NCBI GenBank assembly: GCA_002451155.1
Contig: DKBG01000042.1
Span: forward strand, 12,133 to 76,132
Length of the DNA: 64,000 bases
Direction: 5' to 3'
From: Ignavibacteria bacterium UBA6906
Lineage (GTDB): Bacteria > Bacteroidota > Ignavibacteria > UBA10030 > UBA6906
Shown here: one piece after another, positions 40,467 to 64,000 of the stretch
Position numbering within the stretch: position 1 is the first letter of the stretch
Layout: the number at the start of each line of letters is the position of its first letter
Made by a program: the position numbers and the translations under genes
The notes under the pieces: generated by a model
Seen by the model: only the letters and a program-made list of their open reading frames with translations
Databases searched by the model: none
What the model was told of the DNA's origin: nothing

Positions 40467-41471
40467 TTACCGCATTCGTTTTTGAAACAGCACCGCAGCG
40501 ATGATGATAATCCCCGTCAGCATCAACCGGCTCTCCTCCCCAACGGCATTGATGCTGAGAACCTTTTCAAGGTACCCAATGGTGAGAATCCCCAGCGCCG
40601 TCATCCAGATACTCCCGCGTCCGCCGCGCAGACTTATTCCCCCGATTACCACAATTGCGATGGCACTCAATTCATACGTGCTTCCCGCTTCCGGATCGCC
40701 CTGAAGCTCCTGCGCCGCCTGACAGATTCCTGCGACGCCGCAAAACAGACCACTCAGCGCGTAGGCCAGCAGTTTGACGGCCGAAACCGGAACTCCTGCC
40801 AGCCAGGACGAATCCTCGTTTCCCCCGACCGCGTACGTGTACCGCCCCCAGCGAAGTCGATCCAGAAAGATCCAGGAGAGCAGGACGCAGAACATCAGCA
40901 CCAGCGTCACGACAGCAATATTGTCGTCAAGAAGCCTGGAGCCGATGGTGTTGAAGATCTGCGGGACATCCACGTATTGGTAGGATCCATCGGGTAGCTG
41001 GACAGCAGTCGAGATCTTCTGCCCGCCAGAGACGAGTTTCGCAAGTCCCCGGGCGAACACCATCATTGCCAGCGTCGCGATAAACGGCTGGATCCGGAAT
41101 CGCGCGATGAGCCCCCCGGAGATGGCACCACAAAATGCGGCAGCAGCGATCGTCACCGCGATGGCGGGTATGACCGACCAGCCCCAGTGTATCGAAAAGA
41201 GCGAGAACAGGACCGCGGCGAGGCCCAGGATGCTCCCCACCGCAAGATCGATCCCTCCGGAAATAATAACGACCGTCATCCCGCACGCCAGGATACCATA
41301 GACAGACACCTGCCGGAGCATATCACGGTGAGTATCCCAGCTGAAAAACGCTCCGTCCGCGTTAAAGAGGAGTCCAAGCAAGAACACCAGCAACAGCGAC
41401 ACGATCCCTCTGGCTGTCGGGGAGAGAATCATCGTCCGGAGTCGGGGTATCAGCGAAGTCCTGTCAGGCAT
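40467..41471 (-). CDS. ABC transporter permease (monosaccharide RbsC/XylH/branched-type family)
   Basis: Multiple TM helices, and the motif pattern of binding-protein-dependent sugar permease family 2. The probable start MPDRTSLIP at 41471 lies 2 nt after the ATPase stop. Confidence 0.75.
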   Translation of the reverse strand: MPDRTSLIPRLRTMILSPTARGIVSLLLVFLLGLLFNADGAFFSWDTHRDMLRQVSVYGILACGMTVVIISGGIDLAVGSILGLAAVLFSLFSIHWGWSVIPAIAVTIAAAAFCGAISGGLIARFRIQPFIATLAMMVFARGLAKLVSGGQKISTAVQLPDGSYQYVDVPQIFNTIGSRLLDDNIAVVTLVLMFCVLLSWIFLDRLRWGRYTYAVGGNEDSSWLAGVPVSAVKLLAYALSGLFCGVAGICQAAQELQGDPEAGSTYELSAIAIVVIGGISLRGGRGSIWMTALGILTIGYLEKVLSINAVGEESRLMLTGIIIIAAVLFQKRMR

Positions 41472-43017: not shown

Positions 43018-43029
43018 TGCGCCCTCGTC

Positions 43030-49597: not shown

Positions 49598-51832
49598 CTA
49601 GAGGTTTCGCTTCCAGAACTCAAGCATCGTCGTGTACAGATGAATCCGTGCGGGGCGATCCGCAATACCGTGCATCCTCATCGGGTAAAGCATCAACTCG
49701 AACTGCTTGTTCGCCCGGATTAACTCATCGATAAAGGCCCAGGTGTTCTGAATGTGCACGTTGTCGTCGTAGGTCCCATGGACGATCAACAGTCTTCCGT
49801 TCAGATCCTTCGCGTAGCGCAGGAGGGAAGTTTCCTCCAACCCCTGAAGGTTGTCCGTCTCGGTCTTCATGGCCGATTCCCCGAACTTCGTATCGTAGAA
49901 GCGGAAGTCGGTCACTCCCGCGACGGCGATGCCGGCTTTGAACTCTTTCGACCGGGTCATTGCAAGCAGAGTATAACTCCCGCCACCGCTCCACCCCCAT
50001 ATTCCGACCCGCGTGGAATCGACGAACGGCTGGGTCTTCAACCAGCGAACCGCGTCTACCAGGTCGTGAAGTTCAGTCTCGGCCATGAAACGCCGCGTTA
50101 CCAGGTTCTCAAGGGTCTTGCTGGCCGCCGTTGCAGTGCGGGGATCGACGCGGGCAACAAGGAAGCCCTGTGCCAGCAGGAGATTGTCCCAGAGGATGTC
50201 TCGTTCCCACTGATTCAGGACCTGTGGCGCGGACGGTCCACCGTACACATAGAGTATCAACGGATACGTGCGCGTCGGATCAAAATCTGCCGGTTTCAGG
50301 ATCTGTGCCGGAAGGAGAAATCCGTCGCGCGCCGGAATAGAGAGGAGGGATGGGGTCTGGAGATGAAATTCCGTCAGACGGGCCTGAGTGTCACCGGCCA
50401 TTGTCGTGATCACTGAGCCGTCCCCCCGACAGAGCCGCAGCGACGGCATGACCGATGCGCTGGAATACTTGTCGAAATAATACGTGCCAGCGGTGTTCGA
50501 CGTGATCGTGTGAACGCCAGGCTCCTGTGAGACCCTCATAAACCCGGTCCCGTCAGGCCGGACCCTGTACAGGTGACGTTCCAGGGGGGACTTCTCCGTA
50601 GCCGTGAAGTAGATCCAGCCGTTCTCCTCGTCAACGGCGGTCACTGACTGGTCCAGCCAGAAGACACCGCCGGAACTCCGGAGGGACCAGGGACCATGTG
50701 TCACGCGGTTTACAAGTTTCCCTTCGAGCGTATACCGGTAGAGGTGTTTATAGCCATCCCGCTCAGAGGCCCAGAGAAAATGTTGTCCGTCCTTCATGAA
50801 GTGGAGATCATCGACGATGTTGACCCAGCCGCTGTCCTTTTCAGTGAGAATAAGCGATCCCCTGCCTGTCATCCTGTCCGCGAAGAAGAGATTGAGTTCC
50901 GTTTGCTGCCTATTCATCGTCTGGACGGCAAGCCTGCGTCCGTCGGGGAGCCATTTCACGCGGACGCAATATTCATACGGGTGGGTTCCCGGCACAACCC
51001 AGCGAATCTCCCCGGAGGCAACCTCGATGATTCCGGCGCGAACGACAGGATTCTTCTGTCCGATCTTCGGATACCTCTGGCGTATGACCCTCGGTGTCCA
51101 GGGCTTGAAATCCACGTAATATTGGACGCTGACCCCCGATTCATCCGTTTGAAGGAAGGCGATGGCTGACCCGTCATCGGACCACCAATACGCGCCATCC
51201 TTCCTCCCAAAGACTTCCTCCCAGTAGACCCATGAGAGTGTCCCGTTCAGGAGGCTGTCCGTTCCGTCACGGGTAAGCGGGCGTTCCCGTCTCGACAGAA
51301 GATCGTACAGGTACAGATTGTTCTGCCGGACGTACGCGATCTTTCCTCCGTCCGGGGAAAAGGAGAGGCATGTTTCCGCCTCACGGGTTTCAGTGATGCG
51401 AACGAAATCGGCCGTCTGGAAGCGGAGGAGATAGATATCCCCCCCAAACAGATACAGGCCGTTCCGGCCCGACCCATCAATCTCGAGCGGATTCGGAAGG
51501 GTTTCGGGGGCGAGGGAATCCCCGAGGAGCGATCTCATCGCCGCTAGAGCCCGGCCGGGGTCCACCAGCTGGGTCCGTCTCCCTGACGCCTGATTCAGAA
51601 TCTCCGGCGCCCGCTCACGCGCCGGACGACCGCGGTCATACACCAGAGCGCCGCCCGACGAGAGCCAGCGTACAGAGGGAAGGGACAGGACGTCGGCCGC
51701 TTCGGGACCGTAGATCCACTCAACGCTGAGTGTCTTTCCGGAGTCGGGCACCTGGCCCAACGCCGGATATTGTACGCATAACAGGTAGACAGACAGGGCA
51801 ATGCCGATAGCGCGATTCCGAGGCATTCGCAC
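49598..51832 (-). CDS. S9-family serine peptidase, DPP-IV-like, paralog of 33500-35749
   Basis: GIWGWSGGGSYT nucleophile motif and HGTYDDNVH. Same architecture and length (744 aa versus 749 aa) as the gene at 33500-35749. Confidence 0.85.
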   Translation of the reverse strand: MRMPRNRAIGIALSVYLLCVQYPALGQVPDSGKTLSVEWIYGPEAADVLSLPSVRWLSSGGALVYDRGRPARERAPEILNQASGRRTQLVDPGRALAAMRSLLGDSLAPETLPNPLEIDGSGRNGLYLFGGDIYLLRFQTADFVRITETREAETCLSFSPDGGKIAYVRQNNLYLYDLLSRRERPLTRDGTDSLLNGTLSWVYWEEVFGRKDGAYWWSDDGSAIAFLQTDESGVSVQYYVDFKPWTPRVIRQRYPKIGQKNPVVRAGIIEVASGEIRWVVPGTHPYEYCVRVKWLPDGRRLAVQTMNRQQTELNLFFADRMTGRGSLILTEKDSGWVNIVDDLHFMKDGQHFLWASERDGYKHLYRYTLEGKLVNRVTHGPWSLRSSGGVFWLDQSVTAVDEENGWIYFTATEKSPLERHLYRVRPDGTGFMRVSQEPGVHTITSNTAGTYYFDKYSSASVMPSLRLCRGDGSVITTMAGDTQARLTEFHLQTPSLLSIPARDGFLLPAQILKPADFDPTRTYPLILYVYGGPSAPQVLNQWERDILWDNLLLAQGFLVARVDPRTATAASKTLENLVTRRFMAETELHDLVDAVRWLKTQPFVDSTRVGIWGWSGGGSYTLLAMTRSKEFKAGIAVAGVTDFRFYDTKFGESAMKTETDNLQGLEETSLLRYAKDLNGRLLIVHGTYDDNVHIQNTWAFIDELIRANKQFELMLYPMRMHGIADRPARIHLYTTMLEFWKRNL

Positions 51833-51923: not shown

Positions 51924-53315
51924 TCACACCGTCCGGGAAAAAATAGGTTTGGTCTTCAGCATCGCATCGAGGTATGCGTCGAAGCACATCGCGATATTCC
52001 TAAGCAGGAGTCTCCCCGAGCCCACGATCTGGATCCGGCGTCCGGTGGTTTCCACCAGACCGTCCTCCTCGAATGCCCGAAGCATGCCGAGAGAATCCGC
52101 AAACGTCTCTTCGAAGTTGATCCCGAAACGCTCTTCTACTGACGCCACATCCAGCTCCAGATCGCACATCAGGCGCATGATCACGTGCTTGCGGATGAGG
52201 TCGTCGTTGGTCATGCGGTACCCCACGCGCGTCGCCAGCCGCCCCGCATCAAGATCGGCGTAGTACTCGGGGAGATGTTTCGTATTCTGCGCGTACACGG
52301 TCTGAAAATGACTGATTGCTGACATGCCGAACCCGTAGAGGTCCGCCTCCGCTTTCGTCGAATACCCCTGGAAATTTCTGTACAGGGTTTTTTCCTTCTG
52401 TGCGAGGGCGAGCTCATCCGTGGTTTTCGCAAAATGATCCATCCCGATATACTCATACCCGTTGGAGCAGAAGTATTCAATTGACATTTTCAGGAGCGCG
52501 AGTTTCAGGTCTGGAGCGGGCAGGTCCTCCTGTCGGATCAGCTTCTGATGCGGCTTCAACCATGGGACGTGCGCATAATTGAACAGGGCAATCCGATCCG
52601 GGCTGTATTCAACAATTTTCCGGAGCGTGCGTTCGAATCCCTGGAGGGTCTGGAACGGCAACCCGTAGATCAAATCCATGTTCACGCTGCCGAAGCCGAG
52701 TTCGCGCGCCCACATGTACACCTTTGTCGTCATTGACTCGGGCTGAATTCTGTTGACTGCCCGCTGGACCTGTTCGTCGAGGTCCTGGACCCCCATGCTC
52801 ATCCGGTTAAACCCGGAGTCCCGCAGCGCCTGCAGATGGTCCCGGGTCAACTCGCGCGGGTCGACCTCAACACTGATTTCCGCCTCCGGCGCGACCCGGA
52901 AGGCAGAGTGGATAGCGAGCCCGACATCACGGATCTGATCGGGGGAACAGTGCGTCGGGGTCCCGCCCCCCCAGTGCAGTTGCACGACGCGTCTCAGGGG
53001 GGAGAGGAGGGGGGCGATTGCCGCGATTTCACGTTTGAGATAGCGATTATATTCTTCGATCCTATTCCGGTCACGCGTGACCAGCATGGTGCATCCACAA
53101 AAATAGCAGAGGGTATCGCAGAAGGGAAAATGAAAATACAGAGAGAGGTCGGTCGTGACAGCCGGACTGTTGGTGTTGAGAATTTCCTGATGGTAATCGC
53201 CCGCACTGAAGGAAGAGCTGAACAGCGGCGCTGTGGGGTAACTCGTGTAGCGGGGGCCCGGGCGATCATACTTCCGGAGCAGATCAAGGTCAACCTGAGA
53301 GAACAGCCTTCCCAT
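51924..53315 (-). CDS. hemN: oxygen-independent coproporphyrinogen III oxidase (radical SAM, HemN)
   Basis: Radical SAM cluster motif FPFCDTLCYFCGC, N-terminal LLRKYDRPGPRYTSYPTA typical of HemN, and the HemN_C region. Confidence 0.85.
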   Translation of the reverse strand: MGRLFSQVDLDLLRKYDRPGPRYTSYPTAPLFSSSFSAGDYHQEILNTNSPAVTTDLSLYFHFPFCDTLCYFCGCTMLVTRDRNRIEEYNRYLKREIAAIAPLLSPLRRVVQLHWGGGTPTHCSPDQIRDVGLAIHSAFRVAPEAEISVEVDPRELTRDHLQALRDSGFNRMSMGVQDLDEQVQRAVNRIQPESMTTKVYMWARELGFGSVNMDLIYGLPFQTLQGFERTLRKIVEYSPDRIALFNYAHVPWLKPHQKLIRQEDLPAPDLKLALLKMSIEYFCSNGYEYIGMDHFAKTTDELALAQKEKTLYRNFQGYSTKAEADLYGFGMSAISHFQTVYAQNTKHLPEYYADLDAGRLATRVGYRMTNDDLIRKHVIMRLMCDLELDVASVEERFGINFEETFADSLGMLRAFEEDGLVETTGRRIQIVGSGRLLLRNIAMCFDAYLDAMLKTKPIFSRTV

Positions 53316-53392
53316 CAACACCTCCAACCGGCGAATGCGGAGAACATAATTACAGAATACTGAGTTTTCGTCGGAATATCAAGGCTGCCCGC

Positions 53393-53854
53393 TCACTGGA
53401 CCATGATCGTCGGATTCACTTCGACGATTGAATCGATAGAATTTGTCACAAGACAGTGCTTCTGGGCTCCCTCCAACACGGTGAGGACGTCGTCCTCCTT
53501 CGCTCCTCGAGTGACAACGATAGTTGGAAAGATCACAATCCGGGTAAACCGGTACTGGCCGTCGATGAATTCGAGAACCCCGTTTGCGTGGCTTCGATAC
53601 GAATGGATCGGGAGGTCCGCCTTTTCAGCGAACGCCAGAAACGTCGACATGTGACAGATCTCAACCGAGGCGACAAACATCTCCTCCGGTGTCCACGATT
53701 CTTTCTCCCCGCCGAACTCAGGAGGGCTTGAGATTGTAATGGACGGCTTGCCCTCGGATGAGAGCCTTCCCCTTCTTCCTGAAACCCACTCGGTGCTGGT
53801 GCGGTAGGTAAAGATCCTGTGTTTCAATCCTGAGGGATCACCTGTTTTCATCAT
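53393..53854 (-). CDS. OsmC/Ohr-family peroxiredoxin-like protein
   Basis: 153 aa with two conserved Cys in OsmC-like spacing (..VEICHMSTFLAFA.. and ..AQKHCLVTNSI..). Confidence 0.6.
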   Translation of the reverse strand: MMKTGDPSGLKHRIFTYRTSTEWVSGRRGRLSSEGKPSITISSPPEFGGEKESWTPEEMFVASVEICHMSTFLAFAEKADLPIHSYRSHANGVLEFIDGQYRFTRIVIFPTIVVTRGAKEDDVLTVLEGAQKHCLVTNSIDSIVEVNPTIMVQ

Positions 53855-54359
53855 GCGTCTGTCGTCCGAAGAGTTTTGAGGAGTCGTTGCCGGGTATAGG
53901 AAATCAATCCGCCGGCATCCAGAATCGCCTGGCGGGCTTTCGGCAGCGGGAGGACCGCAAACCGTCCTCCGCTTGTTCGATTACGGATGACTTCCCCAAC
54001 GATTTCCACGGTATCACCTTCCGCCGCCTCAAAGCCGGGAGCGGTGATGAGGTTCAGCCCGAGGTTGATTGCATTCTGCATAAATATTCGGGCGAAGCTT
54101 CCCGCAACAACAGTCAGTTCATACCCTTTGAGGGTGGAGACAGCCTGTTCACGCGACGAGCCGCACCCGAAGTTCTTCCCGGCGGCGATCACGCTCCCCG
54201 GGGGGATCTCACCTGACTTCAGCCGGGTGTTGAAGCCGGCAAGGTCGGCAAATGCGAACTGGGGGGTTTCCGACGGAAGCACGGTCGCCATGTACCGGCC
54301 AGGGTAGATCACGTCTGTCGAGATGTCATCACCAAGAGTGAGCACAACTGCAGGCATTA
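53851..54359 (-). CDS. leuD: 3-isopropylmalate/homoaconitate dehydratase small subunit (LeuD type 2)
   Basis: MPAVVLTLGDDISTDVIYPGRYM... and ...AAGKNFGCGSSREQA. The listed ORF is extended at its 5' end. The internal Met gives a 169-aa LeuD-like protein that abuts the LeuC stop. Confidence 0.8.
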
Positions 54360-55652
54360 CGCACGCGCTCCTTTCCGCGGATCCGTTATGACCCCCGTGA
54401 TGGCAGACGCCGCAGCCACCGCGGGCGAACAGAGATAGACCTCCGAATTGGGATTTCCCATTCTTCCCTTGAAATTGCGATTGGTCGTTGACAGGGCAGT
54501 CTCGCCGTCCCCGAGTGCACCCTCGTGGACTCCAAGGCACGGCCCGCACCCGGGATTCATCACCAGAGCTCCGGCCTGCACGAGGTCCGCCACCATCCCC
54601 TGCTCAAGGGCCTGCGAGTAGATTCGTCCGGAGGCCGGAAATACCAGCATCCGCGTATTCGACGCCACTTTCCTCCCGCGCAGGATCCCCGCAGCCATGG
54701 CGAGATCATCAAGACGGCCATTCGTACATGATCCAATGACGATCTGATCGACCGGTTTTCCCTCCACTGCGTCAATCGATTTGACATTGTCCACGGTATG
54801 GGGACAGGCGATCTGTGGCGTCAGCTCCGACACATCGATCGAAAGGTGCTGATCGTACACCGCATCGGGATCCGGCAGCACACGGTGCACGATATCCCGA
54901 ACGCCCGCCTCGTCTCTCAGATACCGCACCGTCTCATCGTCACACGGAACGATCCCGGCTGTCGCGCCGGCTTCCACAGCCATATTACAGATAACGAGTC
55001 GTCCCGAGGTAGACATCGACGTGACCGTGCTACCGTGATATTCAATGACTCGAAAGTTCGCACCCTGCGCCGTCAGCATTCCAATCAGATGAAGCACCAG
55101 ATCCTTCGGACCGACAAACGGAGGGAATGTCCCGCTGACGTTGACATTGATGGTCGCAGGCACTTCGACGTTCACCGCAATGCCCAGCGCCCAGACACTT
55201 GCCATTTCCGTTGCCCCGATGCCGAAGGCAAACGCCCCCAGGGCCCCATGGCTTGTGGTGTGAGAATCGGTGCCCACCACCACGAATCCCGGCCGCACGT
55301 AGCCACTTTCGGGGAGAATCTGGTGGCAAATCCCTCCGACATCTCCTCTGATGTCGTGGAACTTCCGGATCGCGTGCTTTGCTACGAATGCGCGGATCTT
55401 CTTCTGATTTGTCGCCGTCTTGGGCGATTCCGCGGGAACCCGGTGATCGAAAATGATTGCCACTCTTGCTGGATCCCAGACTGCCGGGTCGAGACCGGTT
55501 TCTTTGTACACCTCGAGAAATTGGTTGATTACGAGGGCCGCGTTCTCATGCGACATGGCCAGATCCACAGCCGGTTCCACGACTTCGCCAGCGGTCACCA
55601 CCTGCCGGCCGGTGGCGCGAGCCAAAATCTTTTCAACGATTGTCATGCCCAT
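54357..55652 (-). CDS. leuC: 3-isopropylmalate/homoaconitate dehydratase large subunit (archaeal/type-2 LeuC, aconitase family)
   Basis: MGMTIVEKILARATG... N-terminus and aconitase-family cluster ligands (GSCTNGR, NPGCGPCLG) in 431 aa. Confidence 0.85.
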   Translation of the reverse strand: MGMTIVEKILARATGRQVVTAGEVVEPAVDLAMSHENAALVINQFLEVYKETGLDPAVWDPARVAIIFDHRVPAESPKTATNQKKIRAFVAKHAIRKFHDIRGDVGGICHQILPESGYVRPGFVVVGTDSHTTSHGALGAFAFGIGATEMASVWALGIAVNVEVPATINVNVSGTFPPFVGPKDLVLHLIGMLTAQGANFRVIEYHGSTVTSMSTSGRLVICNMAVEAGATAGIVPCDDETVRYLRDEAGVRDIVHRVLPDPDAVYDQHLSIDVSELTPQIACPHTVDNVKSIDAVEGKPVDQIVIGSCTNGRLDDLAMAAGILRGRKVASNTRMLVFPASGRIYSQALEQGMVADLVQAGALVMNPGCGPCLGVHEGALGDGETALSTTNRNFKGRMGNPNSEVYLCSPAVAAASAITGVITDPRKGARA

Positions 55653-55707
55653 ACAGGGTATCCATTTTCCGGTATACTGGGTTGTAGTACGGATCGCCGG
55701 CGAGAGA

Positions 55708-56931
55708 TCAGATCACCCGTCTCTCCCGAAGTGATTCTATCTCCCGATCATCGTATCCGAGATCCTTCAATACTTCATCGGTATGCTCTCCCAGACGGGG
55801 AGGAGGTGACTCCACCAGTCCGGGCGTCTTTTCAAACTTCGCGGTAAGATTGAAGAGACTGACCTCTCCAATTCCGTCGACGGTTACAGATGAAAACGCT
55901 TCCCGATGGCCGATCTGCTCCTGCTTCAGCGCTTCTTCAAGAGACAGAATCTCCCCCGAGGGGACATCGCGATCATTGAGTTCCCGCACCCAGTATTCTG
56001 TCTCTCGTTCAGCCAGCCGGGCTTCAAGGAGTGGTGTCAAGTCTTTTCTATTCTTCTTTCTCGTATCTCGCTCCTGGAACCTCGGGTCTGTTTTGAGCTC
56101 AGCGAGACCAAGGACATCCGCAACGGCTTCCCACTGCTCCTGCTTATTTGCGGCGATGTTGATGTAGCCATCCCGGGTTTTAAAGGTCCCCGAGGGGGCG
56201 GCGGTGAAATTGTCATTCCCCATAAGAACCGGTTGCTGGCCCCCGATCATGAGGTTCGCCACCACCCAGCCCATCAATGGCATGATGGAATCGAGGAGCG
56301 CCACGTCAATATGCTGACCTTCGCCCGTGCGGTCCCTGTGCAGGAGCGCTGCCATCACGGCAAACGCGGCGTTCAGCCCACCCACCGTATCGCAGACGGG
56401 AAAGCCCGCACGGAGAGGAGAGCAACGCTCATCGCCGTTGACCGCCATTTCACCGCTGAGCCCCTGGATGATCTGGTCGTAGGCGGGCTTCAAGGAGTCC
56501 GGGCCGGTTTGCCCGAACCCGGAAATCGCGCAATAGACAAGTCGCGTATTGAGTTGACGCAGCGTCTCATATCCGAGACCGAGTCTTTTCATGACGTCCG
56601 GCCGGAAGTTCTCCACCAGAACGTCGGCGGATTTGACCAGCTTCTTGAGGATTTCTTTTCCCTCACCCGCCTTCAGATTAAGGGTGAGCGACTTCTTGTT
56701 TGCGTTCTGCGCGAGGAAACTTGTCCCCATGAGCATTGCATTGTAGCGAGGAACACACCCAAGAGTTCTCGCAAGGTCTCCCCCGGTAGGGTTTTCAATC
56801 TTGATGACCTCTGCTCCCAGGAGGGCGAGATGGAGTGTGGCAAACGGACCCGAGAGCACATTCGTCAGATCCAAGACCCTGATCCCCTCGAGTAGTCTTC
56901 TTCTTCCGTTCATACCCTTTCCCAAAGACAT
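55708..56931 (-). CDS. family III CoA-transferase (CaiB/BaiF family)
   Basis: LEGIRVLDLTNVLSGPFATLHLALLGAEVIKIE N-terminal signature. The internal start MSLGKGM lies about 22 nt below the HMGL-like gene stop. Confidence 0.8.
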   Translation of the reverse strand: MSLGKGMNGRRRLLEGIRVLDLTNVLSGPFATLHLALLGAEVIKIENPTGGDLARTLGCVPRYNAMLMGTSFLAQNANKKSLTLNLKAGEGKEILKKLVKSADVLVENFRPDVMKRLGLGYETLRQLNTRLVYCAISGFGQTGPDSLKPAYDQIIQGLSGEMAVNGDERCSPLRAGFPVCDTVGGLNAAFAVMAALLHRDRTGEGQHIDVALLDSIMPLMGWVVANLMIGGQQPVLMGNDNFTAAPSGTFKTRDGYINIAANKQEQWEAVADVLGLAELKTDPRFQERDTRKKNRKDLTPLLEARLAERETEYWVRELNDRDVPSGEILSLEEALKQEQIGHREAFSSVTVDGIGEVSLFNLTAKFEKTPGLVESPPPRLGEHTDEVLKDLGYDDREIESLRERRVI

Positions 56932-56953
56932 CGCATTCCGGTGAGTTGCACGT

Positions 56954-57871
56954 TCAGGCGCCCGGAGTCTCCGGGATCGCGCCAGTCTTGTAGACGGTAC
57001 CAGGCAGATCCCGGCCGAAGAACTCTGCCACATCTTCGGCGAGGTGGAGAAGCGCGGGCAGGTCTACCTCCGTCCGGAGACCCATTCTGTGCAGCATATG
57101 GACCAGATCCTCTGTCGCCACATTTCCGCCCGCAATTCTTGTAAACGGGCAACCACCCAACCCCCCGATCGACGATTCGAATGATCGCACACCCACCCGC
57201 AGCGCGGCATAGCAGTTTGCCAGCGCCAGCCCATACGTGTTATGAAAATGGCATGCGAGGTCCACTGTTTCATCGATTTTGAGAATTCGCCCGTAGAGCC
57301 GTTCGACCTGATCGGGCGAGGCGTGCCCGGCCGTATCGGCCAGACTGATGTTCTGGAGTCCGGCATTCAGGTATCGTTCCACGATGGCGAGGACCCGTTC
57401 CGGCGGAACAACTCCCTCATAGCCGCAGCCAAAAGCGGATTGGACCGACACTTGTACTTTTGATCCGGCACGTTCCGCCTCACCAGCAATGGCGACGATT
57501 CTGTCTGTCGCTTCGGTGACGGACATTCCTGTATTTTTTTTGCTGTGGGTTTCGCTTGCAGAGACGCCCATGCAGAACAGTTCCACTCCGCAGGCCAGGC
57601 CTCGTTCCAACCCCTTTTCGTTCAGGACAAGCGCGGATAAGGTCGGGCCTTTCGGCTTGGACCTTTCCGAATCCAGCTCGGTGAAGAGCCGGTCGGTATC
57701 CGCCATTTGCGGGACTTTGCCTGGGTGGACAAACGACCCGACCTGAACCAGATCCACTCCTGTACCGGCCACTCGACGGATCCATTCAAGCTTTGTCTCC
57801 AGTGGGACGACCCGCTCCTCCATCTGGAGTCCATCTCTCAGCCCCACTTCATGGACAACGATACGATGCAT
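56954..57871 (-). CDS. HMG-CoA-lyase-like (HMGL-family TIM-barrel acyl-CoA lyase)
   Basis: MHRIVVHEVGLRDGLQ, the RDGLQ signature of HMG-CoA lyase-type enzymes (not the RDGEQ of LeuA/CimA), and 305 aa. Confidence 0.75.
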   Translation of the reverse strand: MHRIVVHEVGLRDGLQMEERVVPLETKLEWIRRVAGTGVDLVQVGSFVHPGKVPQMADTDRLFTELDSERSKPKGPTLSALVLNEKGLERGLACGVELFCMGVSASETHSKKNTGMSVTEATDRIVAIAGEAERAGSKVQVSVQSAFGCGYEGVVPPERVLAIVERYLNAGLQNISLADTAGHASPDQVERLYGRILKIDETVDLACHFHNTYGLALANCYAALRVGVRSFESSIGGLGGCPFTRIAGGNVATEDLVHMLHRMGLRTEVDLPALLHLAEDVAEFFGRDLPGTVYKTGAIPETPGA

Positions 57872-57880
57872 AGAGCACTC

Positions 57881-58999
57881 TCACAGGTGTGCCGCGATGG
57901 CCTCTGCCATCTCGAGCGTGCTGTTCCTTCCCCCCATGTCGTACGTCCTCACCTTGCCTTCCCGGATAACATCGGCAGTTGCCTGCTCAAGCCGGTTCCC
58001 TTTCTCGGTTTCGCCCAGCCAATCGAGCATCATCTTGGCGGCAAGTATCGTAGCGATCGGGTTCACTCTGGACTGACCGGCATACTTGGGGGCAGACCCG
58101 TGAGAAGGCTCAAAAACCGCGAGGGATTTTCCAATATTCCCGGAGCAGCCGAATCCGAGCCCCCCGACCATCTGTGCGGCAAGGTCTGAGATAATGTCGC
58201 CATACAGATTAGGGGCGACCAGCACGTCGTAGCTGCTCGGGTTCTTCAGGAGCCACATGCAAATCGCGTCTACGTTCGCGTCATCGACGTGGATCCCGGG
58301 ATACTCCCGCGACACTCGCTTCGCCTCCTCGAGGAAGAGGCCGTCGGTGGCCCGGACCACGTTCGCTTTGTGAACAATCGTGACCTTTCGCCGATTCTGC
58401 GTCCTCGCAAACTCGAATGCCGAGCGGACAATCCGTTCCGACCCCCTTTTCGTGTTGATCTTACAGGAGACAGCATACTGATCTCCCGGCAGATTCTTAA
58501 ATCCGTGGAACGGCCGGGATAGTCTGCCGAGCACGTCCGCGAGTTCCTGCGGGACGGGAGAGAATTCGACCCCGGCATACAGATCCTCCGTGTTTTCCCG
58601 GAACACCACGAGGTCAACTTTTTCCTGGTAGTTGAGGGGATTCCCCGGATACGCCTTGCATGGACGGAGGCAGACATAAAGGTCGAACATCTGTCTCATT
58701 CGCACAATTGGCGAGCGGTACATGAGTCCTTTGCCTCTCAGCTCCGGCACGAGTTCGGCCTCGGCGGTTTTTGCCGGTTTCGAGGTAATCGCTCCGAACA
58801 TGGCCGCATTGACGCTCTTCAGGAGCGCAATTGTCCTCTCCGGGAACGCATCCCCCTCCGTGCGCCAGTATTCCCAGCCGATGTCACCGTGGAGATACTC
58901 AGCATCGAGAGCTATCCGGTCCAGGACTATCCTGGCCGCGTCCATGACATCATTTCCGATCCCGTCGCCGGGAAGCCACGCAATTTTGTATTTGCTCAT
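57881..58999 (-). CDS. isopropylmalate/isocitrate/homoisocitrate dehydrogenase-family enzyme (LeuB-like)
   Basis: MSKYKIAWLPGDGIGNDV N-terminus, decarboxylating dehydrogenase fold, 372 aa. Confidence 0.8.
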   Translation of the reverse strand: MSKYKIAWLPGDGIGNDVMDAARIVLDRIALDAEYLHGDIGWEYWRTEGDAFPERTIALLKSVNAAMFGAITSKPAKTAEAELVPELRGKGLMYRSPIVRMRQMFDLYVCLRPCKAYPGNPLNYQEKVDLVVFRENTEDLYAGVEFSPVPQELADVLGRLSRPFHGFKNLPGDQYAVSCKINTKRGSERIVRSAFEFARTQNRRKVTIVHKANVVRATDGLFLEEAKRVSREYPGIHVDDANVDAICMWLLKNPSSYDVLVAPNLYGDIISDLAAQMVGGLGFGCSGNIGKSLAVFEPSHGSAPKYAGQSRVNPIATILAAKMMLDWLGETEKGNRLEQATADVIREGKVRTYDMGGRNSTLEMAEAIAAHL

Positions 59000-59095: not shown

Positions 59096-59668
59096 TTACA
59101 CCGTTTCCTTCTTCGCCACAGGGTGCTCAACGGACGCCGTGAACGCCTCTCCCGCCTGGACACCCAGACCAAGGCCGAGGCCGAGGAGCAACCCATCCAG
59201 AAAATTGTCACGGAACAGCGTTGCGGGAAGTCCTCCACCGCCCGCGAACAGATCCGACAGAAGAGTCAGCATGACGAACATGGCACCGTAGGTCAGGCTG
59301 ACTACGGCGAACTTCATCCGCCGGTGCGTTGCGAGCTTCCGTTCAAACAGGAAGGCCAGCGCAATCACCGGCACATTCAGCCCGAAGGAGAAGAGGATGG
59401 ATCGCATCATCGTCACGTAGGCCGACCCGACAGTAAACTGTGCGGCGCTGATGACGACAGCGGCGGTAATCGCCTCGGAGAGCCCTCTGACATGGTAGAA
59501 GGCGAAGATCAGCGCCCCGCTGAAGCCGAACGACACAAATGCGAACCCGGCGCTTGTAGGGCTGAACACCATGGTCCCGTACGATAACAGGCCAACCACA
59601 ACTGCTCCTGCGACTCCGGCGATGGTGATGACGATGATGGTCACGATGTGCGCGAGTGATGGTTTCAT
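59096..59668 (-). CDS. integral membrane protein of unknown function (5-6 TM helices)
   Basis: Strongly hydrophobic throughout. The probable start is MKPSLAHIVTIIV. Confidence 0.5.
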   Translation of the reverse strand: MKPSLAHIVTIIVITIAGVAGAVVVGLLSYGTMVFSPTSAGFAFVSFGFSGALIFAFYHVRGLSEAITAAVVISAAQFTVGSAYVTMMRSILFSFGLNVPVIALAFLFERKLATHRRMKFAVVSLTYGAMFVMLTLLSDLFAGGGGLPATLFRDNFLDGLLLGLGLGLGVQAGEAFTASVEHPVAKKETV

Positions 59669-59746
59669 GGTTTCTCCTTTCGCAATAGGAAACAGGGATG
59701 CCACTCCATCGGTGCGAAACGCCAGCTGGCCCTCATCCACCCCTCG

Positions 59747-59998
59747 TCAGTCCGCCATCCCGGCCTCCAGATCACGCTGGAGCTGCAATTCCACCAGCTC
59801 CCTGCGAAGCGTTTCCGCGTGGTCTTGCTCCATCTCTGCAAGTCCGAGCAGGACACGGCGCGTATGGGCATTCCCCGTCCGTTCCGCGGCCTTTCGGTAG
59901 TACTCCCGCGCTTCCTCCTCATCAGCGATGGCGAGCTCGAGGATGTCCTGGATTGACATCTCGCTCCAATTGAGCATATCATGAGGCGGATGAGACAT
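59747..59998 (-). CDS. small ferritin-like / rubrerythrin-like protein
   Basis: ExxH-type half-site EMEQDH with upstream acidic helices. Translationally coupled (TGAtATG) to the upstream small gene. Confidence 0.4.
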   Translation of the reverse strand: MSHPPHDMLNWSEMSIQDILELAIADEEEAREYYRKAAERTGNAHTRRVLLGLAEMEQDHAETLRRELVELQLQRDLEAGMAD

Positions 59999-59999: not shown

Positions 60000-60248
60000 T
60001 CAGGAAAAGCTTTCGTTGATTTTATCGAGAGTGCTGAATTTCACAGTCAGTATTTCCCGTTTTTCCCGCAACAGGGCAAGCATCTTCTCCCGTTCCCGCG
60101 CGAGGGTTTCAAGGAGTTCACGAACATCGGGATAGTCACACACGGCCGCGTAGTCCCGGTACTCTCTGGCCGCCTGTGCCTCGCGCTGCTCAGCCACCTC
60201 GAGTGCGTTACACAGCCCCTTGCACGAATGCACGCAATCCTGTTTCAT
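60000..60248 (-). CDS. small hypothetical protein (Cys-containing N-terminus CVHSCKGLC followed by helices)
   Basis: The probable start MKQDCV is chosen because it avoids overlap with the POR gamma gene. It is coupled to the downstream ferritin-like gene. Confidence 0.35.
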   Translation of the reverse strand: MKQDCVHSCKGLCNALEVAEQREAQAAREYRDYAAVCDYPDVRELLETLAREREKMLALLREKREILTVKFSTLDKINESFS

Positions 60249-60285
60249 CGCCGCCTCCTTCCTTTCACCTGATGAGTCCGGCATC

Positions 60286-60837
60286 TCAGGCCGGCTGTGC
60301 CACGGACGCCAGCTCTCCGCCACGCCGGAGTGCCTGCTCATTCAGCGGGAGGAGATGGTGATACCGCTCCGGCAACACTTTCCGGAGCGCCCGGGTTACG
60401 CTTTCCCCCGCCACGACGTGCGTGCGGTCAAGAATTGCCCCCAGGAGGATCATATTCATGATTTTCGTGTTCTTGAGTTTCACTGCCTCTTCGCTTGCCG
60501 GGACGGACAGGATCTGGATATCCGCGCGCGTGGGGGGGGTGATGACATTCGTGGAATCGTATACCAGCAGCCCGCCCGGTTTGACGGCCCGCTCAAATTT
60601 CTCCACAGACGGCTGATTCAGCGCCACCACGATATCGAATGAGCTGATGATGGGCGAGCTAATTTTTCCGTCGGAAATAATCACAATGCAATTCGCCGTT
60701 CCCCCGCGCATCTCGGGACCGTACGACGGCATCCAGCTGATTTCCTTCCCTTCGATCATCCCTGCATAAGAGAGCGTCATGCCCATTGAAAGCACCCCCT
60801 GGCCTCCGAACCCGGCGAACAACAGTTCATGCGTCAT
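60286..60837 (-). CDS. 2-oxoacid:ferredoxin oxidoreductase gamma subunit
   Basis: MTHELLFAGFGGQGVLSMG...SYGPEMRGGTANC is the classic POR/VOR gamma motif. Confidence 0.85.
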   Translation of the reverse strand: MTHELLFAGFGGQGVLSMGMTLSYAGMIEGKEISWMPSYGPEMRGGTANCIVIISDGKISSPIISSFDIVVALNQPSVEKFERAVKPGGLLVYDSTNVITPPTRADIQILSVPASEEAVKLKNTKIMNMILLGAILDRTHVVAGESVTRALRKVLPERYHHLLPLNEQALRRGGELASVAQPA

Positions 60838-60850
60838 GGTTTGATCCTTC

Positions 60851-61624
60851 CTATTTCGGCGCTTTAATATCCCCGGGAGGGTAGAGTGGAAACATGTTCT
60901 CCACCAGCCATGCATTGGACTGGACAGGTGTCATCTTCCATCCGGACGGGCAGTTGGAGACCACCTCGATGAAGCAGGTTCCTTTTCGCTCCTTCTGGTA
61001 CTGAAAAGATTTCGTGATCGCCTTTTTCAACTGACGAACGGCATTTGGTGTATGCACGGACTGACGAGTCACATAGTAAGTCCCCGGCAGCATGGCCACC
61101 ATTTCAGTGATCTTCAGGGGGAAACCCGCCGTTTCGACCGTGCGACCTGCAGGTGATGTAGACGTTTTCATGCCGAGGAGCGTCGTTGGCGCCATTTGAC
61201 CACCGGTCATCCCGTATATTGCGTTATTGACAAACACCATGAGGATGTTTTCGCCCCGGTTACATGTGTGAATGGTCTCCGCCGTCCCAATCGCCGCAAG
61301 GTCGCCGTCCCCCTGATAGGAGAAGACAAACCTGTCGGGGAGAACCCGTTTGATGCCCGTCGCAACGGCCGACGCCCGTCCGTGGGCAGCCTCCTGCATA
61401 TCGACATCCATGTAATTGTAGGCAAACACTGAACATCCCACCGGCGCGACCCCGATCGTTTGCTCGCGGATTCCCGCTTCCTGAACAACCTCCATGATCA
61501 CGCGGTGGACGACACTGTGCCCGCATCCCGGGCAGTAGTGAAAGCGCGTATCGGTCAGCGTGTCCGGTCTGGCATACACGCACTCCATCTGCTCAAGGGC
61601 GGCATCGACCACGTCTTGTCCCAT
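60851..61624 (-). CDS. 2-oxoacid:ferredoxin oxidoreductase beta subunit (TPP-binding)
   Basis: CPGCGH motif and GDG TPP-binding region. Confidence 0.85.
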   Translation of the reverse strand: MGQDVVDAALEQMECVYARPDTLTDTRFHYCPGCGHSVVHRVIMEVVQEAGIREQTIGVAPVGCSVFAYNYMDVDMQEAAHGRASAVATGIKRVLPDRFVFSYQGDGDLAAIGTAETIHTCNRGENILMVFVNNAIYGMTGGQMAPTTLLGMKTSTSPAGRTVETAGFPLKITEMVAMLPGTYYVTRQSVHTPNAVRQLKKAITKSFQYQKERKGTCFIEVVSNCPSGWKMTPVQSNAWLVENMFPLYPPGDIKAPK

Positions 61625-61625
61625 A

Positions 61626-62717
61626 TCAGTACGTCTCCGCTGGTTGTGCATGGGGGTGGGCAGCCGCGAGGGTCTTCAATTCACGCACGATCTCTTCAGG
61701 CGCCGGTATGACACCCCCCATCCTTCCATAGAATGACACGGGGGCTTTTCCGTTCACGGCCAGCCGAACATCTTCCACCATTTGACCCGCGTTCATTTCC
61801 ACTGTCAGCACTCCGGCAACCTTCTTCGCGATGCTCCGGATCGGTCCGGAGGGAAAAGGATAGAGGGTGATAGGGCGAATGAGGCCAACCCGGATTCCTT
61901 CCGCGCGTGCGACCTCGACCGCTTTGTGCGCAATGCGCGCGACAAGCCCGTACGCAACGATAAGATATTCCGCGTCATCCGTGTGAATGGCCTCGTAGCG
62001 GACCTCTCGGGATTCGATCACCCTGTATTTCTCCTGCAGCCTCAGATTGATCTGCTCCATCTTCTCGGGTTGAATATGCAGCGAGGTGATGATATTCGCC
62101 GGCCGCTCGGGGGGTTTTCCGACGGTCGCCCAGGGTTTCGGCGGAACATGATCCTCCACCCGGTATTCGGGAAATTCCACCTTCTCCATCATCTGACCGA
62201 GCGCTCCGTCAGCGAGAATCATCACCGGGTTGCGGTACCGGTCGGCCAGATCAAAACCGTCATAGACGAATTCAGCCATTTCCTGTACACTCGAGGGGGC
62301 AAGCACAATCAAGTGGTAGTCACCGTGCCCGCCGCCCTTCGTAGCCTGGAAGTAATCTCCCTGGGCGGGCTGGATAGTCCCGAGGCCCGGCCCACCCCTG
62401 TTCACATTGACGACGAGGCAGGGAAGTTCCGCCGACGCGATGTACGAGAGCCCTTCCTGCATTAGGCTGATCCCCGGACTGGATGAAGACGTCATCACTC
62501 GCGCTCCCGCACCCGCCGCGCCGTAGATCATGTTGATAGCGGCGACTTCGCTTTCCGCCTGGAGCACGATCATCCCACGCCGTCGTCCTTCGTCTGTCAG
62601 GTATTCGAGAATCTCCGACTGGGGAGTGATGGGATATCCGAAGTATGCCCTGCAGCCCGCGCTGATAGCAGCCTCCGCCAGGGCTTCATTCCCTTTCATT
62701 AGCCTGAAGTCGTTCAC
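61626..62717 (-). CDS. 2-oxoacid:ferredoxin oxidoreductase alpha subunit
   Basis: 363 aa with typical PorA/VorA/KorA composition. Its position between the delta and beta genes and the 1-nt gap to the beta start support the call. Confidence 0.8.
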   Translation of the reverse strand: MNDFRLMKGNEALAEAAISAGCRAYFGYPITPQSEILEYLTDEGRRRGMIVLQAESEVAAINMIYGAAGAGARVMTSSSSPGISLMQEGLSYIASAELPCLVVNVNRGGPGLGTIQPAQGDYFQATKGGGHGDYHLIVLAPSSVQEMAEFVYDGFDLADRYRNPVMILADGALGQMMEKVEFPEYRVEDHVPPKPWATVGKPPERPANIITSLHIQPEKMEQINLRLQEKYRVIESREVRYEAIHTDDAEYLIVAYGLVARIAHKAVEVARAEGIRVGLIRPITLYPFPSGPIRSIAKKVAGVLTVEMNAGQMVEDVRLAVNGKAPVSFYGRMGGVIPAPEEIVRELKTLAAAHPHAQPAETY

Positions 62718-63010
62718 GAGGGTTTCCCTTCCTCGTCTATTGTAACGGTGATGTTCTGCGTCACGCCTGAGATACGTGCGACTGGCACCCGCGTTTTCTT
62801 CTTCTCGCGGTAGACGGTAATCACGGCATCAGGGCAGACAAGCGCGCAATTTGTGCAGCCGGTACAATTATCCTTGACCAGCACAACGTAATGGTATCCC
62901 TGCGCGTTGATTCTGGGAGAGAGTTCCAGGCTGTCCTGCGGACACGCCTCGATGCAGAGTTCACACCCCTTGCAGTTTTCGATATCAAATACCACTGTCC
63001 CTTTGGCCAT
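62714..63010 (-). CDS. 2-oxoacid:ferredoxin oxidoreductase delta subunit (2x[4Fe-4S] ferredoxin)
   Basis: CKGCELCIEACP and CTGCTNCALVCP motifs. The gene overlaps the alpha start by 4 nt. Confidence 0.85.
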   Translation of the reverse strand: MAKGTVVFDIENCKGCELCIEACPQDSLELSPRINAQGYHYVVLVKDNCTGCTNCALVCPDAVITVYREKKKTRVPVARISGVTQNITVTIDEEGKPS

Positions 63011-63049: not shown

Positions 63050-64000
63050 TCACCTGACATATTCCAGCGACGCCCGAAGGTCTCCGGTAATGTCCTCCGG
63101 TTTTTCCAGACCGATCGAAAGACGCACGCCGCCGGGATCGAGACCTTTCGCGATCTGGTCTTCCGCAGGAATGGCTGAGTGTGTCATTGACCCGGGATGT
63201 TCGATAAGGGTCCGGATATTTCCGAGACTCACAGCAAGCGTGATACAGTAGGCGTGGCTGGCGACATGGTTGATGAATCGTTCGGCCCGGTTCAGGGAAT
63301 CGCGAGGGGACTCGCCCTGAAACACGAAATAAATCATTCCGCCCGGTGCGAACTGTCCGTCATAGTCCCGCATCTGCCGTCTGGCAAGCTCGGCTTGTGG
63401 AAAGGATGGCAGTCCGGGATAGAACACGCCGGAAACCTCCGGGCGTGAGGAAAGAAACTCGGCGACCTTCAGTGCTGTCCCCTGCATCTGGCGCATCCGT
63501 ACCGCAAGCGTCGGTAGACCCTGAACGAGCACCGGCCATGCTGATTTCGCGGAGAGAATCCCGCCGAAATCCTTCCGATAGAGCATCAGCATGTCATAGC
63601 TCCATTTCGGTCCCACGACCACACCTCCCACATCTGTGCCAAACCCTCCTATCCCTTTTGTGAGGGAATGGATGGTGAAGTCAATCCCGAGGGCAATCGG
63701 CCTCTGGCAAAACGGCGTCGCAAAGGTGCTGTCAACGACGGTAAACAGCCGCTCGTCGTTGCTCCTGGTGGCGTTGACACGACGTGCGATGGCGGCAACC
63801 GCAGCCAGATCGACGAGGCGCATGGTCGGATTGACGGGCGATTCCATATAGAGGACCCTGGTATCTTTGGTGATGGCCCGTTCGACCGCCGCAAGGTCGG
63901 TAAAATCGACAAACGTCGTTGTGATCCTCTGCCGCGGGTACCAGTTGGTGAGAAGGGAATAGGTGCATCCGTACAGCGTTTTGTGCGCAACGATCTCGCT
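63050..64000 (-). CDS. Cys/Met-metabolism PLP-dependent enzyme (cystathionine gamma-synthase / O-acetylhomoserine sulfhydrylase / methionine gamma-lyase family), 5' end beyond the window
   Basis: PLP-lysine motif FTIHSLTKGIGGFGTDVGG. I checked that the frame is open from 63847 to 64000 and reads ...AHKTLYGCTYSLLTNWYPRQRITTTFVDFTDLAAVERAITKDTRVLYMESPVNPTMRLVDL, a typical segment of this family. Confidence 0.8.
   Translation of the reverse strand, partial: SEIVAHKTLYGCTYSLLTNWYPRQRITTTFVDFTDLAAVERAITKDTRVLYMESPVNPTMRLVDLAAVAAIARRVNATRSNDERLFTVVDSTFATPFCQRPIALGIDFTIHSLTKGIGGFGTDVGGVVVGPKWSYDMLMLYRKDFGGILSAKSAWPVLVQGLPTLAVRMRQMQGTALKVAEFLSSRPEVSGVFYPGLPSFPQAELARRQMRDYDGQFAPGGMIYFVFQGESPRDSLNRAERFINHVASHAYCITLAVSLGNIRTLIEHPGSMTHSAIPAEDQIAKGLDPGGVRLSIGLEKPEDITGDLRASLEYVR

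Follow-up and report, generated by a model that had tools for sequence, protein, structure and literature searches.

A window of 64,000 nucleotides from Ignavibacteria bacterium UBA6906 (contig DKBG01000042.1) carries on its minus strand a conserved, apparently undescribed module of five genes, which encode in order a dehydrogenase (DH), a lyase of the 3-hydroxy-3-methylglutaryl-CoA (HMG-CoA) lyase family (LY), a CoA-transferase (CT) and the large and small subunits of a LeuCD-type isomerase (LC and LD). The gene combination DH-LY-CT-LC-LD was not described in the literature that we searched in full text, and the term 'isopropylmalyl-CoA' was absent from the same literature. We judge the chances to be about even that the module is a thioester-conserving, reversible alkylmalate shunt that acts on a non-polar substrate and leans to chain shortening, with substrates, a CoA donor and a direction that we infer. 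An earlier, sequence-only reading of this DNA had proposed at its core that an alkylmalyl-CoA lyase and a CoA-transferase, linked to LeuCD and LeuB, replace the thioester-hydrolysing synthase, and this idea has turned out to be the most economical reading of the five strictly co-conserved genes.

Layout and conservation of the five-gene module

Families were assigned by Pfam and NCBIfam profile searches on the open reading frame (ORF) translations of the 64-kb window. According to the ORF listing and translation, the module and a sixth ORF all lie on the minus strand between positions 53393 and 58999. The first gene of the module, DH (57881-58999, 372 aa), encodes a beta-decarboxylating dehydrogenase of the isopropylmalate dehydrogenase (IPMDH)/isocitrate dehydrogenase (IDH) family (Pfam Iso_dh, E 2e-87), and is followed by LY (56954-57871, 305 aa), an HMG-CoA-lyase-family acyl-CoA lyase with a single HMGL-like domain (residues 6-281) and the motif RDGLQ at residues 12-16. 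CT (55708-56931, about 401-407 aa) belongs to the family III (CaiB/Frc-type) CoA-transferases (Pfam CoA_transf_3, E 1e-120), and its alternative start at 56913 is preceded by a purine-rich stretch. LC (54357-55652, 431 aa) is an Fe-S large subunit of the LeuC/HacA-type (archaeal-type) aconitase/isopropylmalate (IPM) dehydratases (NF001614, 544 bits with a cut-off of 385; TIGR02086, 510 bits with a cut-off of 410), and LD (53851-54357, 168 aa) is a small subunit of LeuD type (LeuD/DmdB, LEUD_arch; TIGR02087, 117 bits with a cut-off of 109). The sixth ORF (53393-53854, 153 aa) encodes an OsmC/Ohr-like peroxiredoxin (Pfam OsmC, E 7e-12). Read from the sequence, gaps of 9, 22 and 55 nt separate DH from LY, LY from CT and CT from LC, respectively, while LC and LD overlap by 1 nt (TAATG) and LD and OsmC by 4 nt (ATGA), so that OsmC is translationally coupled to LD. 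The six co-oriented genes with gaps of 0-50 nt described in the sequence-only reading are thus essentially right, the measured distances being −4 to 55 nt. Terminator-like sites in the window were not commoner than in shuffles, and promoter-like sites numbered 8 with 3.9 expected, the excess falling at no informative position.

A search with the LY protein yielded thousands of relatives, with identities of 65-99% among the best 120, and a scan of one genome per species returned 420; the locus analyses cover the best 80 of these, so that the sample is biased to the best matches. Probing these loci by tblastn with the six window proteins showed that the DH-LY-CT-LC-LD order and orientation are kept in about 75 of the 80, on all contigs of sufficient length, the individual proteins being 60-83% identical. 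The carriers span at least 10 phyla and include Ignavibacteriota, Bacteroidota, Acidobacteriota, Gemmatimonadales, Verrucomicrobiota/Opitutales, Anaerolineae (Anaerolineaceae), Clostridia, Synergistia, Calditrichota, Krumholzibacteriia, Eisenbacteria, GN15 and Gammaproteobacteria, among others. Concatenated identity among 59 complete loci of this best-match sample ranged from 0.66 to 0.94 (median 0.72), with clusters that roughly track taxonomy. All three contexts that were inspected, in metagenome-assembled genomes (MAGs) of Ignavibacteriota, Acidobacteria and Bacteroidota, hold Iso_dh, HMGL-like, CoA_transf_3, Aconitase and Aconitase_C domains in this order, and an outlying relative of LY at 50% identity (P0122, locus L084) has the same four partner genes. 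As the order and orientation recur in about 75 loci, the arrangement is not due to chance, and DH-LY-CT-LC-LD is one selected unit. By contrast, OsmC follows LD in only about 20 loci, all of Ignavibacteriota or Bacteroidota, and being confined to these it is a lineage-specific add-on outside the conserved unit; the six-gene grouping first proposed therefore holds for its five-gene core and not for OsmC.

Additional co-oriented genes interrupt the operon in four Ignavibacteriota-type loci (L016, 10908-12722; L011, 10938-12614; L084, 5152-7932; L049, 11394-12341), standing either between LY and CT or between DH and LY. In three of the four (L016, L011 and L084) the inserted gene codes for a type IX secretion cargo protein that combines a Por_Secre_tail domain with GlcNAc-2-epimerase-like, SdrD_B or BNR/sortilin domains, and no Pfam family matched the insert in L049. 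The LY-CT inserts in L016 and L011 are passengers rather than pathway members because they encode type IX secretion cargo proteins. A response regulator also lies between CT and LC in L084. Such repeated, independent insertions into the same operon are odd.

The missing synthase and the specificity of the enzymes

The sequence-only reading placed an HMGL-type lyase and a family III CoA-transferase, and no LeuA/CimA-type synthase, in the slot between dehydrogenase and isomerase, and both domain content and model scores agree with it. On LeuA, CimA and homocitrate-synthase models LY scored at most 75 bits against cut-offs of 360-950, and Pfam found the barrel domain alone, with the LeuA/CimA subdomains and the C-terminal LeuA_dimer regulatory domain absent. 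LeuA/CimA-type genes were absent from the 64-kb window and from the 10 kb around each of the 80 loci, and no second HMGL-like, Iso_dh, LeuC or LeuD gene was found in the window or in the same 10-kb flanks. A canonical leuA directly upstream, for which the earlier reading had allowed, is likewise missing, since the 5 kb upstream of DH in the window hold a membrane protein, small rubrerythrin-like ORFs, a four-subunit Vor-type 2-oxoacid:ferredoxin oxidoreductase and a methionine-gamma-lyase-like gene, and the window holds no paralogue.

The same gap has been met in a genome description. The paper on "Ca. Thermonerobacter thiotrophicus" reports genes for leucine synthesis 'from 2-isopropylmalate' but the lack of IPM synthase and of valine and isoleucine synthesis. 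In its Table S1, the consecutive genes _10000184 to _10000188 are COG0066, COG0065, COG1804, COG0119 and COG0473, i.e. the module, and each of these five COGs occurs once in the table; hence they are the only leuB/C/D-family genes there. The table also lists a separate COG0538 IDH and a branched-chain aminotransferase, and the names acetolactate synthase, ketol-acid reductoisomerase, dihydroxy-acid dehydratase, methylcrotonyl-CoA carboxylase (MCCase) and isovaleryl-CoA dehydrogenase do not appear among its transcribed genes. The module genes fall into the 'weak evening' and 'strong evening' clusters (D and E), which the authors treat as night categories that include anaerobic respiration genes. 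A similar remark, leuBCD but no leuA, was made on a Chloroflexi bin in another mat study.

LY scored 287 bits on the NCBIfam HMG-CoA lyase subfamily NF004283 (cut-off 246), and its best match in the Protein Data Bank (PDB) is the B. subtilis HMG-CoA lyase (1ydo, 216 bits); its AlphaFold2 (AF2) model is a TIM barrel with a predicted local distance difference test score (pLDDT) of 89. The catalytic set of HMG-CoA lyases is present, with R12, D13, H208, H210, C241 (in GGCP) and N250 (the Asn metal ligand) invariant in the orthologues, for which conservation sets of 66-81 sequences per protein were used (73 for DH and 66 for LD). Among 1.8 billion 50%-identity representatives, the LY group comes down to one full-length representative (447 bits), followed by P0122 at 321 bits and then by a continuum at no more than 255 bits and no more than 45% identity. 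The nearest outgroup, P0128 (45% identity), belongs to a classical cluster for leucine catabolism, along with a family I CoA-transferase, the MCCase beta subunit and an enoyl-CoA hydratase. By contrast, LY always lies between DH and LC, and genes for MCCase, methylglutaconyl-CoA hydratase or isovaleryl-CoA dehydrogenase were found near none of the 80 loci. Comparison with 121 HMG-CoA-lyase-like representatives gave about 15 substitutions that are invariant in the LY clade and lie in or beside conserved active-site motifs, among them N→M17, F/V→G102, Y/G→S142, S/A→Q144, P→G150, I/T→A181, V/M→H183, D→N211, D→E232 and A→T244. By these sequence criteria LY is a discrete clade apart from the leucine-catabolic HMG-CoA lyases, with a changed pocket. 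We propose that it is an (R)-2-alkylmalyl-CoA lyase acting on citramalyl-CoA or 2-isopropylmalyl-CoA; its specificity positions are remodelled relative to those of the 121 representatives.

CT lies below all NCBIfam equivalog cut-offs, the best being succinate-glutarate CoA-transferase (306 bits against 750), and its best PDB match is human succinate-hydroxymethylglutarate CoA-transferase (SUGCT; 9br6, 270 bits). Asp181 in the motif PVCDTVGG aligns with the SUGCT Asp, is invariant in the orthologues and is presumably the catalytic residue. We propose that CT is an alkylmalate CoA-transferase. HMG-CoA lyase (LiuE/YngG/HMGCL) and SUGCT are thus the closest solved or annotated relatives of LY and CT, with metal ligands and catalytic motifs in common.

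These relationships could also mean that two unrelated functions share one operon, with LY and CT handling HMG or HMG-CoA (at the end of leucine catabolism or in HMG salvage) and DH and LC/LD serving ordinary leucine biosynthesis. Such a division would agree with an LY that exceeds the NCBIfam HMG-CoA lyase cut-off and shares about 45% of its residues with solved HMG-CoA lyases, with a CT whose best solved relative is SUGCT, and with a nearest LY outgroup in a true leucine-catabolic cluster; we nevertheless regard it as improbable. LY and CT stand between DH and LC in the same order in at least 10 phyla, with other leucine-catabolic genes not nearby, LeuBCD without LeuA would be left without a substrate, and the DH is NADP-type and IDH-like, unlike typical LeuB. 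The clade-specific pocket changes of LY speak in the same direction, as does the established mechanism of the families, since HMG has no 2-hydroxy-succinate core and so offers no substrate to LeuCD/IPMDH-type enzymes. HMG as an intermediate shared by all five enzymes was rejected, because the malate core that the LeuCD and IPMDH families bind is missing and its tertiary alcohol is not oxidisable.

Conserved catalytic signatures are present throughout the module: three Fe-S cysteines in LC (C309 in GSCTNGR, C370 and C373 in PGCGPCLG), the CT Asp, the R-D, H-x-H, GGCP and Asn elements of LY and the Arg/Tyr/Lys/Asp set of DH. All five enzymes look catalytically competent. The specificity loop of LD reads Y22-M23-A24-T25, without Arg, and is conserved in the 66 orthologues; it aligns with YLVY of the M. 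jannaschii isopropylmalate/citramalate isomerase (3vba) and with YLRT of the homoaconitase from the same species (2pkp). DH falls below every NCBIfam equivalog cut-off (TIGR00169 leuB, 199 bits against 353; PRK03437, 275 bits against 393), and its middle part best matches residues 111-217 of the E. coli-type NADP-IDH. Its substrate-loop motif YRSPIVRMRQ (residues 94-103), invariant in the orthologues, aligns with IRSLNVALRQ of IDH, such that IDH Ser113 is kept as S96 and IDH Asn115 is replaced by Ile98 in the window protein as in each of the 73 orthologues; the N115L mutant (1grp) outscores wild-type IDH in alignment to DH. Arg85 of the Thermus homoisocitrate dehydrogenase (HICDH; TtHICDH) aligns with Val99 of DH, which is conserved. 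The meaning of these LD and DH positions was reportedly established by mutagenesis and structures (Jeyakanthan 2010; Miyazaki 2003; Doyle 2001). Given that LD has YMAT without Arg and that DH has Ile at the IDH Asn115 site and Val at the HICDH Arg85 site, a non-polar substituent is indicated. The conserved residues thus argue against isocitrate, homoisocitrate and homocitrate as substrates and point to a non-polar alkylmalate.

The cofactor loop of DH, HGSAPKYAGQsrVNP, matches NADP-IDH (2iv0 and 6c0e) and is 80-98% conserved in the 73 orthologues, whereas the NAD-type HICDH has HGSAPDIAGK. From this loop, DH looks like an NADP(H)-type dehydrogenase. An insertion of about 15 residues before the substrate loop (residues 72-93, window positions about 58721-58786, PAKTAEAELVPELRGKG) is absent from IDH and HICDH and moderately conserved, and might be part of the substrate pocket. 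Residues 144-175 form an insert like the clasp of E. coli IDH.

We reasoned through a polar variant as well, in which the module would be an arm of the tricarboxylic acid (TCA) cycle, of the reverse TCA cycle or of the alpha-aminoadipate pathway and would handle isocitrate, citrate and citryl-CoA or homoisocitrate and homocitrate. DH does share motifs with the E. coli-type NADP-IDH, including the clasp-like insert, its top NCBIfam and PDB matches are homoisocitrate and isocitrate dehydrogenases, and genes for malate dehydrogenase and citrate synthase are found close to one acidobacterial locus. However, the residues that would hold the carboxylate are non-polar in every orthologue (IDH Asn115 to Ile, HICDH Arg85 to Val, homoaconitase Arg to Ala), the equivalog scores of DH are far under the cut-offs and the Thermonerobacter table has its separate COG0538 IDH, so this variant appears very improbable. 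Citrate/isocitrate and homocitrate were rejected as substrates on the conserved DH and LD residues.

Proposed pathway and its direction

The shunt proposed for the non-polar substrate would comprise four steps, given here in the shortening direction. DH would use NADPH and CO2 for reductive carboxylation of a 2-oxoacid R-CH2-CO-COOH to a 3-alkylmalate, which LC/LD would isomerise via an alkylmaleate to the 2-alkylmalate. CT would then transfer CoA from a donor, succinyl-CoA or acetyl-CoA, to the C4 carboxylate, and LY would cleave the resulting (R)-type 2-alkylmalyl-CoA to acetyl-CoA and the shorter 2-oxoacid R-CO-COOH. The net reaction would be R-CH2-CO-COOH + CO2 + NADPH + acyl-CoA donor <-> R-CO-COOH + acetyl-CoA + NADP+ + the free acid of the donor. 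The pairs most likely to be interconverted in the cell are 2-oxobutyrate and pyruvate, by way of 3-methylmalate, citraconate, (R)-citramalate and citramalyl-CoA, or 2-oxoisocaproate and 2-oxoisovalerate, by way of 3- and 2-isopropylmalate, or both. In a catabolic or salvage role, 2-oxoacids derived from leucine or from methionine and threonine would be turned into acetyl-CoA and a central 2-oxoacid, with the reductive carboxylation as an electron sink.

By analogy, the closest mechanistic precedent for LY and CT would be the Sct/Ccl pair of Chloroflexus aurantiacus, a class III CoA-transferase of about 44 kDa adjoining an HMGL-family lyase of about 34 kDa that convert (R)-citramalate to acetyl-CoA and pyruvate. 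Friedmann, Alber and Fuchs reportedly described in 2006/2007 a class III succinyl-CoA:D-citramalate CoA-transferase adjacent to an HMGL-family R-citramalyl-CoA lyase in Chloroflexus. The adjacent, co-oriented CT and LY match this pair in layout and size. Sct/Ccl is not known to accompany LeuCD- or IPMDH-like genes, nor to have a clear physiological role. LeuCD uses the (R) isomer of citramalate, and the stereochemistry of the proposed pathway would match the HMGL-type R-citramalyl-CoA lyase as well as LeuCD.

The canonical LeuA-LeuCD-LeuB and CimA-LeuCD-LeuB routes share with the module the archaeal-type LeuC/LeuD isomerase, the beta-decarboxylating dehydrogenase family and the DRE-TIM barrel, and the intermediates (2-alkylmalate, alkylmaleate, 3-alkylmalate) would coincide. 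By contrast, the module has no synthase, its lyase stands on the HMG-CoA lyase branch, and a CoA-transferase is added so that the thioester would be kept and not hydrolysed; its dehydrogenase has an NADP-IDH-type cofactor loop and an IDH-like insert, and no amino-acid-responsive leader was detected. The citrate-cleaving arm of the reductive TCA cycle (NADP-IDH, aconitase, and ATP-citrate lyase or citryl-CoA synthetase/lyase) follows an identical logic of carboxylation, isomerisation, CoA activation and cleavage, from which the module would differ in a non-polar rather than carboxymethyl substituent, in CoA transfer rather than ATP and in an HMGL-type rather than citrate-synthase/CitE-type lyase. 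Because the thioester is kept and the irreversible synthase is absent, the pathway would be reversible and energy-conserving, and by analogy with citrate synthase as opposed to the citryl-CoA/ATP-citrate lyase arm of the reverse TCA cycle, a sequence without thioester hydrolysis would lie near equilibrium. That the irreversible synthase is absent and that DH looks NADP(H)-type would then favour operation mainly toward shortening.

Neighbouring genes bear on the direction as well. The Vor-type oxidoreductase upstream of the module in the window is encoded on the minus strand by four genes (delta 62714-63010, alpha 61626-62717, beta 60851-61651, gamma 60286-60915); alpha scores 554 bits on NF005507 VorB (cut-off 399), and delta, beta and gamma match generic 2-oxoacid:ferredoxin oxidoreductase models. 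Beyond it, also on the minus strand and truncated at its 5' end by the edge of the window, lies a gene for a methionine-gamma-lyase-like pyridoxal-phosphate enzyme (63050-64000), of which residues 1-262 align with positions 150-389 of TIGR01328 met_gam_lyase (E 4e-60, below the cut-off because the gene is truncated). About 30 loci have Vor upstream of the module; in L036 it is found downstream on the opposite strand. The methionine-gamma-lyase-like gene, Vor delta/alpha/beta/gamma, the module, OsmC and HemN form a block whose synteny is kept, at 65-83% identity, in about 25 MAGs of Ignavibacteriota or Bacteroidota, and the window thereby falls into this lineage. In 16 loci a gene of the AcetylCoA_hydro/transferase family stands between the methionine-gamma-lyase-like gene and Vor. 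These three neighbours all centre on 2-oxobutyrate or branched 2-oxoacids and acyl-CoAs and are catabolic. Outside this block, clustering of all ORFs of the 80 loci gave no recurrent neighbour; sampled neighbours are unrelated (ABC/Mla transport, methylase, nitrilase, peptidases, SpoIIE), and an acyl-CoA dehydrogenase gene lies directly upstream of the module in two Clostridia MAGs. The NADP-IDH-type loop, the catabolic neighbours in Ignavibacteriota and the acyl-CoA dehydrogenase in Clostridia make the direction lean to chain shortening.

The catabolic alternative of the sequence-only reading survives in part, in that the circumstantial context leans to a catabolic or reversible role. The itaconate and mesaconate routes that it named (Ict-Ich-Ccl; class I fumarase/mesaconase) have in common with the module a family III CoA-transferase and a final cleavage of citramalyl-CoA to acetyl-CoA and pyruvate. 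However, they proceed through (S)-citramalyl-CoA, use a lyase of CitE type together with either a MaoC-type hydratase or a fumarase, and have no LeuCD/IPMDH component, unlike the module. Neither a MaoC-type hydratase nor a CitE-type lyase was found by Pfam in the operon or among the annotated recurrent and sampled flank genes, and this route is ruled against because the MaoC-type hydratase, the CitE-type lyase and the class I fumarase are all missing.

The opposite direction would make the module an anabolic replacement of LeuA/CimA, in which LY condenses acetyl-CoA with 2-oxoisovalerate or pyruvate to an alkylmalyl-CoA and CT passes the CoA on, saving the thioester; its end product would be leucine, 2-oxobutyrate and isoleucine, or, with the help of the neighbouring Vor, isovaleryl-CoA as a primer of iso-branched lipids. 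The gene content is that of the leucine pathway with its synthase swapped, LeuCD and LeuB are known to work in the biosynthetic direction, leuA is absent from the window and the 10-kb flanks of the 80 loci, and Vor is upstream in about 30 of them. Many host phyla are rich in iso-C15 lipids, which counts for this alternative too. In the Thermonerobacter table no leuB/C/D-family genes occur outside the module, and its authors took leucine to be made from 2-isopropylmalate. Yet the same MAG is reported to lack valine and isoleucine synthesis, in which case de novo branched-chain amino acid synthesis would be impossible. From established thermodynamics, the condensation of a ketone with acetyl-CoA would be unfavourable unless the thioester is hydrolysed, and an NADP-type DH would work against oxidative decarboxylation in vivo, canonical LeuB being NAD-dependent. 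LY has no LeuA-like regulatory domain, no leader peptide precedes the operon, Rfam at gathering thresholds found no T-box, leader or other riboswitch across the window, and the conserved neighbours, where present, are catabolic. We therefore consider the anabolic alternative doubtful, though it keeps appreciable weight as the main rival of the shunt.

Several observations also weigh against the chain-shortening shunt. The closest relatives of LY are true HMG-CoA lyases at about 45% identity and the best PDB match of CT is SUGCT, so that an HMG-related role of the pair may be compatible with the sequences. Residue evidence cannot separate methyl from isopropyl or larger groups, and the bulk lost at LY G102, S142 and A181 and at LD A24 might hint at a larger R. 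NADP-IDH is normally oxidative, and the NADP-type loop leaves the direction unfixed. Reductive carboxylation would be uphill at low CO2, and several of the host phyla include aerobes. The Vor/methionine-gamma-lyase neighbourhood is confined to the one Ignavibacteriota/Bacteroidota lineage, and the genome-content argument rests on the Thermonerobacter table, which covers the transcribed genes of one partial MAG.

If the shortening shunt holds, it could amount to a natural 'reverse leucine/citramalate pathway' in at least 10 phyla, a tentative extension to which we give somewhat less than an even chance. Such a pathway would be independent of B12 and biotin, would fix CO2 transiently and would serve as an electron sink in anoxic habitats, converting leucine (or 2-oxobutyrate/propionyl-CoA) to acetyl-CoA and 2-oxoisovalerate (or pyruvate). 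It would add a route for catabolism of leucine or of 2-oxobutyrate and propionate. It would also be a widespread natural variant of 2-oxoacid elongation (leucine, isoleucine, lysine, coenzyme B and the oxidative TCA arm) that keeps the thioester and is able to run backwards, a form until now known only for the citrate branch (reverse TCA cycle, reversed citrate synthase). The annotation oddity 'leuBCD but no leuA' in MAGs, together with missing valine and isoleucine synthesis in some genomes, would be explained. Current pipelines annotate the module as an HMG-CoA lyase and leucine biosynthesis, and so distort predictions of auxotrophy and catabolism in abundant soil, peat, groundwater and reactor bacteria (Ignavibacteriota, Acidobacteriota, Gemmatimonadota, Verrucomicrobiota). 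A 2026 preprint designed synthetic cycles that take 2-ketobutyrate via citramalyl-CoA to pyruvate and acetyl-CoA with new-to-nature enzymes, and the module would supply natural parts for designs of this kind.

Other features of the window

Upstream of DH, across a gap of 96 nt, lies a minus-strand gene for a multi-pass membrane protein of 214 aa (59096-59740) that has no Pfam or NCBIfam match. It was found by tblastn at the same position, at 54-66% identity, in nine other loci (L006, L012, L015, L020, L025, L032, L037, L049 and L055), and might be a module-linked transporter. Between it and Vor gamma are two small minus-strand ORFs (59747-59998 and 60000-60341), one of which (83 aa) matches the rubrerythrin/ferritin-like fold while the other (113 aa) has no match. 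At the other end, OsmC is followed on the minus strand by a gene for a HemN-like, oxygen-independent coproporphyrinogen oxidase (51924-53327). OsmC and HemN are syntenic only in the Ignavibacteriota group, and the coupling of a peroxidase with the genes of an oxygen-sensitive Fe-S dehydratase may be more than coincidence.

Farther away, a plus-strand ORF of 1364 aa (150-4244) matches class I/II aminotransferases only at residues 4-254, the other roughly 1100 residues having no Pfam family; it may be a fusion protein or else an artefact of ORF calling in GC-rich DNA. A plus-strand ORF of 1004 aa without Pfam match lies within 25135-32526, directly upstream of TamB-like and Omp85/POTRA (TamA/BamA-like) genes. 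Polymer-degrading genes occupy 4295-9329, 33500-35749, 37898-45318 and 49598-51832 and encode a GH20 hexosaminidase, a CBM9 protein, an alpha-L-fucosidase, two GH3 enzymes, a DPP-IV and an S9 peptidase, a content that fits a peptide- and glycan-scavenging heterotroph.

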